From: Candidatus Freyarchaeum deiterrae
Lineage (GTDB): Archaea > Asgardarchaeota > Jordiarchaeia > Jordiarchaeales > Jordiarchaeaceae
Direction of reading: 5' to 3'
Assembly (NCBI GenBank): GCA_037305845.1
Contig: CP147778.1
Span: 864,001-928,000 of the forward strand
Length of the DNA stretch: 64,000 bases
This document shows, one piece after another, positions 30,734 through 32,262 of the stretch. The notes beneath the pieces are model-generated. The model searched no databases. It had not been told where the DNA came from and saw nothing but the letters and a program-made list of their open reading frames with translations. The first letter of the stretch is position 1. Each line of letters starts with the position of its first letter. The position numbers and the translations under genes are program-made.

Positions 30734-30771
30734 AGTTAAACCCCCTTATAATTTCTTATACTCCAAATCAC

Positions 30772-31086
30772 CTCTACTCCGCAAGGAAGCCCACTAACTT
30801 TAGTTAAGGCTCGAGAAATTGCGGATTTATGGGGTGGGGCTTTCATTGTCTATAAGGTCTGGTGACCCACAAACCAGTTTAACCCCTTCGACAAGCCGAG
30901 CCGGACCTTAGCTACCCCTAGGCGCCACGTATTGAGTAGTTCTGCCGAAGGGAAGCGGGACTAGACCGCATATCCCGCCGTTCTCGTAGCCCGAGGTGGG
31001 CAATCGTTTGAAACTACAATGTCCGGTTAAGATTTGCGTTTTTACAATCATTACAAGCCCGCACGATTTGGCCGTAGGTTCTTGAT
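30772..31086 (-). mobile_element. Non-autonomous IS200/IS605-type element resembling an IscB omega/HEARO RNA, inserted in the 3' end of nurA
   Basis: On the minus strand: left-end-like ATCAAGAACCTACGGCCAAATCGTGCGGGCTTG, then TCTTAACCGGAC, CTACG, hairpin GCGGGA-N12-TCCCGC, GGTTAAAC, and right-end-like GCAATTTCTC...CTAAAG...GGGCTTCCTTGCGGAG. Excision restores an in-frame nurA end. Confidence 0.7.
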
Positions 31087-32262
31087 GTCTATCCCGTGTT
31101 TTGGTTTAAATAGGCGATAAAACTTTTTTGGGGATATGTTGTTTTGTCTGGCTATTTTAACTATTTTGGCTAGTAGTTCATCTGCTAGAAAGTTGGGTAA
31201 ATCTGTTTCTATGAGGCTGAAGGCGTGAGCGAATTCCAGTGACCAGGGTATATTGTTTAGGTTATTTGCCTGGTGGTAAATGGCTGAGCATATGTATTCA
31301 AGCTGCTTCTCGCTTTCAGCCAAACTCTTGTGTATTTCTACTCTGATAGGGAGCGCGTCCTTGTGAGGTTTTATGTAGAAAAATCTCTGCTCCGCAAGAA
31401 ATCTGGAATATCTCGCCCCAAAAATATTCCTTTGTGCCAGCATTGACCACAGGCCGCTCATTTGCGGGACTGTTATGTGGAGTTCCTCCGGATTACACGG
31501 CTGGAGAATTGAATCCAGAAGATTTACATCGTTTATTCTTCCGTAAATACCGCTCAGCCAAGAGGATACGTTTCTGTAATTTGCGATAAAATCCATGGAG
31601 TGGGGAGACTTTATTACAAACGCGTGGAGCGTGTCTAAGAGTTTTTCTGCCAGTATGTCCGCGGTGCCGTTGCTTCCATAAATTTTTTCAAAAACTATTT
31701 GGTACTCCTGTTGAACCTCTCTCGCCCGATTACTGAAAGCTTTTGTGTCCGCTGGGCCGTATGGCAGGAGATCGTATTGGGGAAGAAAGGGACCGTCCAG
31801 CAAAACTAGATCGTAACTGTTACCTTCGAGTGTCCTAAGGGTGACTAGCCGCTCCAAATACTGTCGGGATACCGCCTGGATTCGCTCAACATCCTCGTCC
31901 ACTAATCCCATGACTGGTATACATTTTCCAATGACATAGGGATTCTGTGCTACCGGATTGTTGCATTTGAAGGTGATGCCCGCAGCGGAAACCACTATGA
32001 GATCCAAGCCCGCTCTCTGGCTTCTATTGGAAGAGCCGTCAACTGCTAGTGTAACAGCGTCTCTCGCTGAGAGATTGGTTCTGAGTTTTAGTGTTTCAAG
32101 CTCCTTGTTCTCATTTAGGTTTTCAACTGCCTCGAGTAGTTCCAGATACATATCGTAGAATCTATGAACTTCGGATTCGAGTACATCAAGTGTTTGATGA
32201 AAGAGTTCTCCCCTATGTTTTTTATTACTCTCCTCTTCCAAGAATTTTAATAGGTCGGTCAA
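31051..32262 (-). CDS. nurA: NurA-family nuclease (RNase H/PIWI-like fold)
   Basis: LAVDGS, YLER, VLLDGP and C-terminal AH motifs; overlaps the herA stop by 4 nt. Confidence 0.82.
   Translation of the reverse strand: MTDLLKFLEEESNKKHRGELFHQTLDVLESEVHRFYDMYLELLEAVENLNENKELETLKLRTNLSARDAVTLAVDGSSNRSQRAGLDLIVVSAAGITFKCNNPVAQNPYVIGKCIPVMGLVDEDVERIQAVSRQYLERLVTLRTLEGNSYDLVLLDGPFLPQYDLLPYGPADTKAFSNRAREVQQEYQIVFEKIYGSNGTADILAEKLLDTLHAFVIKSPHSMDFIANYRNVSSWLSGIYGRINDVNLLDSILQPCNPEELHITVPQMSGLWSMLAQRNIFGARYSRFLAEQRFFYIKPHKDALPIRVEIHKSLAESEKQLEYICSAIYHQANNLNNIPWSLEFAHAFSLIETDLPNFLADELLAKIVKIARQNNISPKKFYRLFKPKHGIDIKNLRPNRAGL

Follow-up and report, generated by a model that had tools for sequence, protein, structure and literature searches.

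A protein-less, probably decaying derivative of an IsrB-type IS200/IS605 element in the last codons of nurA in a probable Asgard archaeal genome

The last codons of nurA in a closed 3.58-Mb genome of 40.7% GC (G000) are interrupted by 315 bp of inserted DNA, which lies immediately 5' of a GTGA motif in the sense orientation of the operon; it has replaced the tail of NurA and displaced the next gene by ~315 nt. This insert is most probably a stranded and decaying non-autonomous element, a protein-less PATE- or MITE-like derivative of an IsrB-type IS200/IS605 (ISC) element. As such it is of a known type, an omega-RNA-bearing PATE of the IsrB/ISC group, and represents no new system or mechanism. 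The window analyzed is a stretch of 64,000 nucleotides from that genome (G000:C1:864001-928000); coordinates without a contig label refer to it, and all window features described below lie on its minus strand.

As now present, nurA occupies positions 31051..32262 and encodes 403 residues (Pfam NurA, E 6.9e-11), overlapping a HerA-like gene at 32259-33860; the insert is in sense orientation within this herA-nurA operon. The nurA reading frame crosses the junction at 31087/31086, and the first 33 nt of the inserted RNA scaffold supply codons for the last 11 residues of NurA, after which the present stop codon (31053-31051) follows inside the insert. On the far side, the orphaned original 3' end of nurA, 11 codons and a stop, is found at 30736..30771, and the next gene, a 296-aa ORF with a TTG start (29843..30733), now lies ~320 nt from the current nurA stop. 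With the insert excised in silico, nurA continues into a tail of 12 codons; 2 nt separate the stop of this tail (30738-30736) from the TTG at 30733. The same compact arrangement occurs in five genomes of the genus: in 5/5, the flanks left of 31087 and right of 30772 are contiguous, the codons orphaned in G000 are continuous with nurA, and the counterpart of the 296-aa ORF adjoins the nurA stop. Relative to these congeners the extra DNA amounts to exactly 315 bp with precise boundaries, and the joined flanks identify these 315 bp (~31086-30772) as an insertion. A truncated nurA with a 315-bp insert at a codon boundary, as set out in the original prediction from the sequence of this region, is thus borne out, as is the description of the segment as GC-richer than its surroundings (0.51-0.62 in 100-nt windows, vs 0.41 for the genome).

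Comparison of NurA orthologs leads to the same result at the protein level. The congener proteins (five genomes, 78-84% identical) can be aligned with the G000 protein only to residue 393-397 of 403 (392-397 over the orthologs aligned); they terminate in ...KPKHGLEVIW...RGV/I, with a stop codon that abuts the TTG of the next gene, and the same type of tail is present in three same-order orthologs at ~52% identity. Because this tail is common to all eight orthologs, it is a conserved part of NurA that was replaced in G000 by eleven element-encoded residues; it is the VIWSIRNYKGV-like ending anticipated for the uninterrupted gene, and not the insert-encoded end, that the orthologs share. The orphaned tail is still in frame at 30771-30736, with loss of the otherwise invariant R of the RG motif. 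In the window (30741-30750) and in the empty sites (L005-L009), the last NurA codons (the RG/KG-V part) also constitute a G-rich, Shine-Dalgarno-like run of the TTG-start gene, and this double role may explain why part of the orphaned tail is still conserved. The possibility that the 296-aa ORF is itself a degenerate IsrB was ruled out, as it has no similarity to the IsrB of this genome (P0002, described below) and no Pfam family. The published annotation of Ca. Freyarchaeum deiterrae, the probable host, lists four NurA homologs.

The sequence TAGA stands on both sides of the insert, leaving the junction register ambiguous by 1-5 nt. Five registers (31087-30773 and four shifts) reproduce the congener empty site unchanged; register 31086-30772 requires one substitution relative to the congeners but matches the conserved first base of the family, and this homology favors it. 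The flanking TAGA resembles a short target duplication. IS200/IS605 elements make no target duplications, and since an AG likewise ends related copies ahead of NTGA, the pair is likely a coincidence.

The GTGA at 30768..30771, directly 3' of the element, has the form of an NTGA-type target-adjacent motif. NTGA directly follows the element end in 8 of the 9 family members examined, 8-22 nt past a conserved TTGCGG-like motif, and reads GTGA in the window and ATGA at the full-length element of G000; at the empty site of the five congeners, the nurA flank runs directly into GTGA. Hirano et al. (2022, PMC9581776) likewise give NTGA as the target-adjacent motif of IsrB. At the opposite end, the guide-equivalent flank is made up of the 20 nt of nurA coding sequence that immediately precede the scaffold (31087..31106). 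These observations bear out the expectation of a guide drawn from the 5' flank, with GTGA on the 3' flank. A search of G000 allowing up to 2 mismatches found no second genomic match to the 20-nt flank, nor did a search of metagenome contigs, seeking occupied or empty alleles in related populations, return any match to it.

Assignment of the insert to the omega RNAs comes from a covariance model (R1) built from 12 regions upstream of isrB genes (alignment A2; consensus of 64 pairs), from which the region upstream of G021_C1 was excluded as it did not align with the family. The single R1 match in the window spans model positions 1-261 of 261 and nucleotides 31086-30837 of the minus strand (75.1 bits, E 2.3e-26), and this match delimits the eroded, HEARO-type omega-RNA scaffold of an IsrB element at 30837..31086. 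Two matches only were found in the whole of G000, the second lying directly upstream of its only isrB gene, and R1 returned no match in the five congeners. By BLAST, the window copy is 70% identical over ~210 nt to this isrB-linked RNA, and both begin with ATCAAG, not GTCAAG. Compensatory changes are seen at 28 pairs in the training set and at 37 of the 64 pairs in a wider alignment of 19 sequences, in which 91.6% of cells are paired, as compared with 28-45% when the partners are slid.

Four of the isrB-linked relatives match Rfam HEARO, with scores of 57-98 bits and two above the gathering score (83), which places the family among the HEARO/omega RNAs. The HEARO search proposed for the window copy itself gave no match at E<=10 over 30600-31250, and Rfam over the window at gathering score identified no HEARO and nothing relevant; local Rfam matches to BsrC and CRISPR-DR16 (E~8) were rejected as chance. 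The folding energy of the single sequence is unexceptional (17 of 100 shuffles fold as well), and at z = -1.0 this fold was set aside as uninformative about structure. The original reading of the segment as a protein-less IscB/IsrB omega-RNA element is upheld by its full-length homology to isrB-upstream RNAs, by the HEARO matches of its relatives, and by the empty sites in congeners. Its structural details fared unevenly. The GCGGGA/TCCCGC helix (30955-30978) corresponds to consensus helix 9, with 8/8 pairs kept and covariation in the family, and the TAAC/GTTA hairpin, which also covaries, is that of the far transposon end. In contrast, the letters of the 10-bp CCCTTCGGCA/TGTCGAAGGG helix are invariant and show no covariation, its inner part conflicting with the covariation-supported helix 10, and the proposed GGTCT/AGACC pseudoknot falls in a non-conserved part and finds no support in the family.

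Beyond the scaffold, the insert retains the far end of a transposon, a feature that the original prediction overlooked. This far end comprises the last ~54 nt (30772..30825) and contains a subterminal hairpin; it was located by local alignment to the isrB 3' end in L002, the locus of the full-length G000 element, where its homologous counterpart is the final ~50 nt of the isrB coding sequence. The block and its covarying hairpin are present in the comparable full-length elements and in 4/4 protein-less copies, and the window far end is almost identical to the family consensus. The 5' end of the insert begins at the conserved first base of the family. With the last ~54 nt recognized as the far transposon end, the element is a miniature IS with both ends and not an RNA gene alone. 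Between the ends, a remnant of the first codons of isrB (~17 nt, 30837..30853), whose ATG has become ATA, can be recognized when the insert is aligned with the isrB-linked copy and with 11 further isrB loci, and sits within the 3' part of the R1 match. No isrB gene is adjacent downstream: all that remains is the ~17 nt of its start and ~50 nt of its end, and the nearest isrB, which is also the only one, lies 1.27 Mb away. G000 holds one miniature copy and one full-length element; the sensitive BLAST of this genome for further copies, a check suggested at the outset together with a search for iscB or isrB, recovered only the one upstream of isrB.

The product of this gene, a 353-aa ORF (P0002), is encoded by the only RRXRR-domain gene in G000 (PF14239, E 4e-46, its only Pfam match even at E<=10), and no HNH domain was found in it by Pfam at E<=10. 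P0002 is a clear homolog of the IsrB of Desulfovirgula thermocuniculi (DtIsrB, 8DMB), with which it aligns over residues 2-319 (E 2e-72), including the RuvC motifs; its R316 and Q319 fall opposite the DtIsrB residues by which G3 and A4 of the motif are read (residue numbering inferred). The full-length element, consisting of an omega RNA and the 353-aa isrB, is outside the window at G000:C1:2160298-2161589 (L002 about 418-1709, minus strand). Four congeners lack it and have GTGA there, so that it, too, is an insertion; it lies just upstream of a host gene whose ATG overlaps the isrB stop TGA (ATGA). Elsewhere in the phylum, other families contain IsrB relatives of 37-64% identity. An IsrB protein search of five same-genus and five same-order genomes found no isrB, BLAST and the RNA model found the element absent from the five same-genus genomes, and an IsrB protein scan of genome contigs returned one distant Pirellulales locus only.

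Y1_Tnp (PF01797) was not found in the closed G000 genome; the same search was positive in control genomes, G018, G312, and G313. About ten TnpB-like frames of roughly 400-460 aa (PF07282) are present in G000 (e.g., C1:2623367-2623567 and C1:3248021-3248206). As G000 has TnpB-like frames but no Y1 TnpA, all of its IS200/IS605-type elements appear to be non-autonomous.

Related protein-less copies are present in a second genome, G018, which contains at least three mini-elements (L072:1501-1744, L076:1501-1753, and L081:1501-1751, all minus strand) without an IsrB within 1.5 kb. These copies have a common deletion junction, isrB being removed from roughly its start codon up to some 50 nt short of its stop, and are mutually 66-70% identical, indicating that they multiplied after the deletion. 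They amount to a true MITE-like family, and G018 carries Y1 TnpA genes as well. The G018 copies are only 47% identical to the window copy and have a different deletion junction, so the two miniature lineages arose independently; in both genomes, the nearest relative of a protein-less copy is the isrB-linked RNA encoded in that genome. Within the phylum, R1 also recovers, at 25-50 bits, RNAs that immediately precede IscB-like frames of greater length, 400-470 aa (G311, G312, and G313; e.g., G313:C52:153125-153413 and G312:C4:845762-846046), and the 26 matches in G312 and 29 in G311 indicate genomes rich in IscB/IsrB elements. At a further locus, L028 (G313:C11:4447-5475), isrB carries three stop codons (one TGA, two TAA) and its upstream omega RNA still scores 269 bits, a value inflated by construction because this RNA is in the R1 training set.

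The window scaffold is visibly eroded. It retains 66 of 85 invariant columns and, in a model-fitted alignment that may undercount alternative registers (e.g., in helix 2), 48 of 64 consensus pairs, for a score of 75 bits. The 15 protein-linked copies, which include three outside model training, one of these beside an IsrB ~37% identical to P0002, keep 55-64 of the 64 pairs and score 188-282 bits; their 85/85 invariant columns hold by construction, as the columns were defined on these copies. Together, the four protein-less copies show 45-49 pairs, 60-66 invariant columns, and scores of 75-104 bits. Reading the window copy as decaying is based on this loss of about a quarter of the consensus pairs and invariant positions, a loss seen in the other protein-less copies as well. 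Damage in the window copy is concentrated in the three 5' helices next to the guide, where 13 of 21 pairs are kept; counted against decay, helices 4, 7, 8, and 9 are fully kept and helix 12 retains 5/6 pairs, so that erosion is partial. In two lineages, then, protein-less omega-RNA copies erode faster than protein-linked ones, an observation that bears on the functionality of stand-alone guides.

The origin of the insert can be outlined from how such elements work. A Y1 TnpA supplied in trans would have inserted the element. Read-through from herA-nurA would then yield an omega RNA with the nurA flank as its 5' guide, and with IsrB, a nickase, this RNA would recognize the empty site (flank plus GTGA), favoring re-copying of the element. 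Today the element is probably stranded and drifting, because a closed genome with no TnpA gives rise to no empty sites. With a single copy in G000, transposition of a pre-formed mini-element and in-situ deletion of a full element leave indistinguishable results.

Alternatively, the insert may encode a working stand-alone omega RNA, cotranscribed with nurA and loaded in trans by IsrB, that guides nicking of element-free nurA alleles, with retention or homing of the element as a selfish outcome. Several observations are consistent with this: isrB is intact in this genome (353 aa, with RuvC motifs that line up with those of DtIsrB), and its cognate RNA is well kept; this cognate is the nearest relative of the window RNA and has the ATCAAG start in common with it; the window RNA lies in sense orientation in an operon, as guide biogenesis requires; its GTGA fits the NTGA motif, and R316 and Q319 of P0002 align with the motif-reading residues (numbering again inferred); and core helices 7-9 are intact. 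However, the scaffold is only 64-70% identical to its cognate, it departs from the protein-linked copies at 19 of their 85 invariant positions and lacks 16 of 64 pairs, chiefly in the 5' domain by the guide, the copy is not recognized by HEARO, and without a Y1 transposase no empty site is produced in G000. On this balance a working guide RNA is unlikely. The more specific proposal that the eroded RNA is still loaded by the single IsrB nickase and acts in trans at nurA, through retention or homing or through nick-triggered recombination beside HerA-NurA, we regard as rather improbable; if true, a single IsrB in an Asgard archaeon would naturally serve two guide RNAs that are encoded at separate loci. 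Use of the window RNA in trans by IsrB is possible but unsupported.

Domestication by the host, either as a structured spacer or regulator between nurA and the 296-aa gene or as a new NurA C-terminus, is very improbable. The insert does lie in the operon in sense and provides the present NurA stop, and the downstream gene keeps its Shine-Dalgarno-like run and TTG. Against this, it is absent from five same-genus and five same-order genomes, where the junction has stayed compact and NurA has its conserved tail; the guide lacks a second genomic target, the single-sequence fold is not exceptional, and no conservation is seen beyond one genome. The current trans use and operon-regulator roles raised in the original prediction both fail to gain support, given the absence of the element from five congeners, its eroded scaffold, and the lack of a HEARO match. 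The idea of an intergenic spacer or non-coding RNA of an ordinary, lineage-specific sort and with no relation to transposons, for which the absence of any Rfam family at threshold in the window might speak, has next to no probability, as it is refuted by full-length homology to isrB-linked HEARO-type RNAs, the far end, the NTGA, and the precise presence/absence relative to congeners.

Taken as a decaying miniature derivative of an IsrB element, the insert offers a before-and-after case for this type, in which the occupied site, five empty sites, the guide-equivalent flank, and the NTGA can all be read. With it, IsrB elements and miniature forms derived from them are documented in a genome that is probably Asgard (Freyarchaeia). 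A published read-mapping survey of that genome reported no discernible integrated mobile elements (PMC11529989). For annotation, the insert accounts for the odd NurA C-terminus and for a 315-nt gap in an otherwise compact operon.

Among known systems, palindrome-associated transposable elements (PATEs) of IS200/IS605, as described for Geobacillus stearothermophilus, often carry omega RNAs that are usable only in trans; in IscB-type elements the scaffold is located at one transposon end with the guide just outside and 5' of it, and omega-RNA biogenesis needs transcription entering from the flank, and the elements tend to share the orientation of the gene that lies upstream (Meers et al., bioRxiv 10.1101/2023.03.14.532601). 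Like these PATEs, the window element has no protein gene, keeps both ends, carries a scaffold usable only by a nuclease encoded elsewhere, and needs TnpA in trans; unlike the Geobacillus PATEs, its partner is IsrB and not TnpB or IscB, its host is archaeal, and it is present in one copy, with no TnpA and an eroded scaffold. With respect to HEARO (RF02033), the window copy is homologous to relatives that match the family but does not itself match at E<=10. ISC elements insert at 4-nt targets of the GT|GA or N|ATGA type (Kapitonov et al., 2016, PMC4810608). The window element resembles ISC transposons (PMC4810608) in its GTCA-type 5' end, a 3' end before TGA, insertion at such a target, and subterminal hairpins, and in that these transposons are mostly non-autonomous; it differs as a miniature derivative whose first base is A rather than G. 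In comparison with the D. thermocuniculi IsrB-omega RNA system (8DMB, PMC9581776), the protein gene has been lost from the window copy, and the likeness at the protein level is shown for the G000 partner, which has 353 aa and no HNH. As in that system, a ~250-nt RNA is encoded just upstream, with the guide on its 5' side and NTGA beyond the far end.
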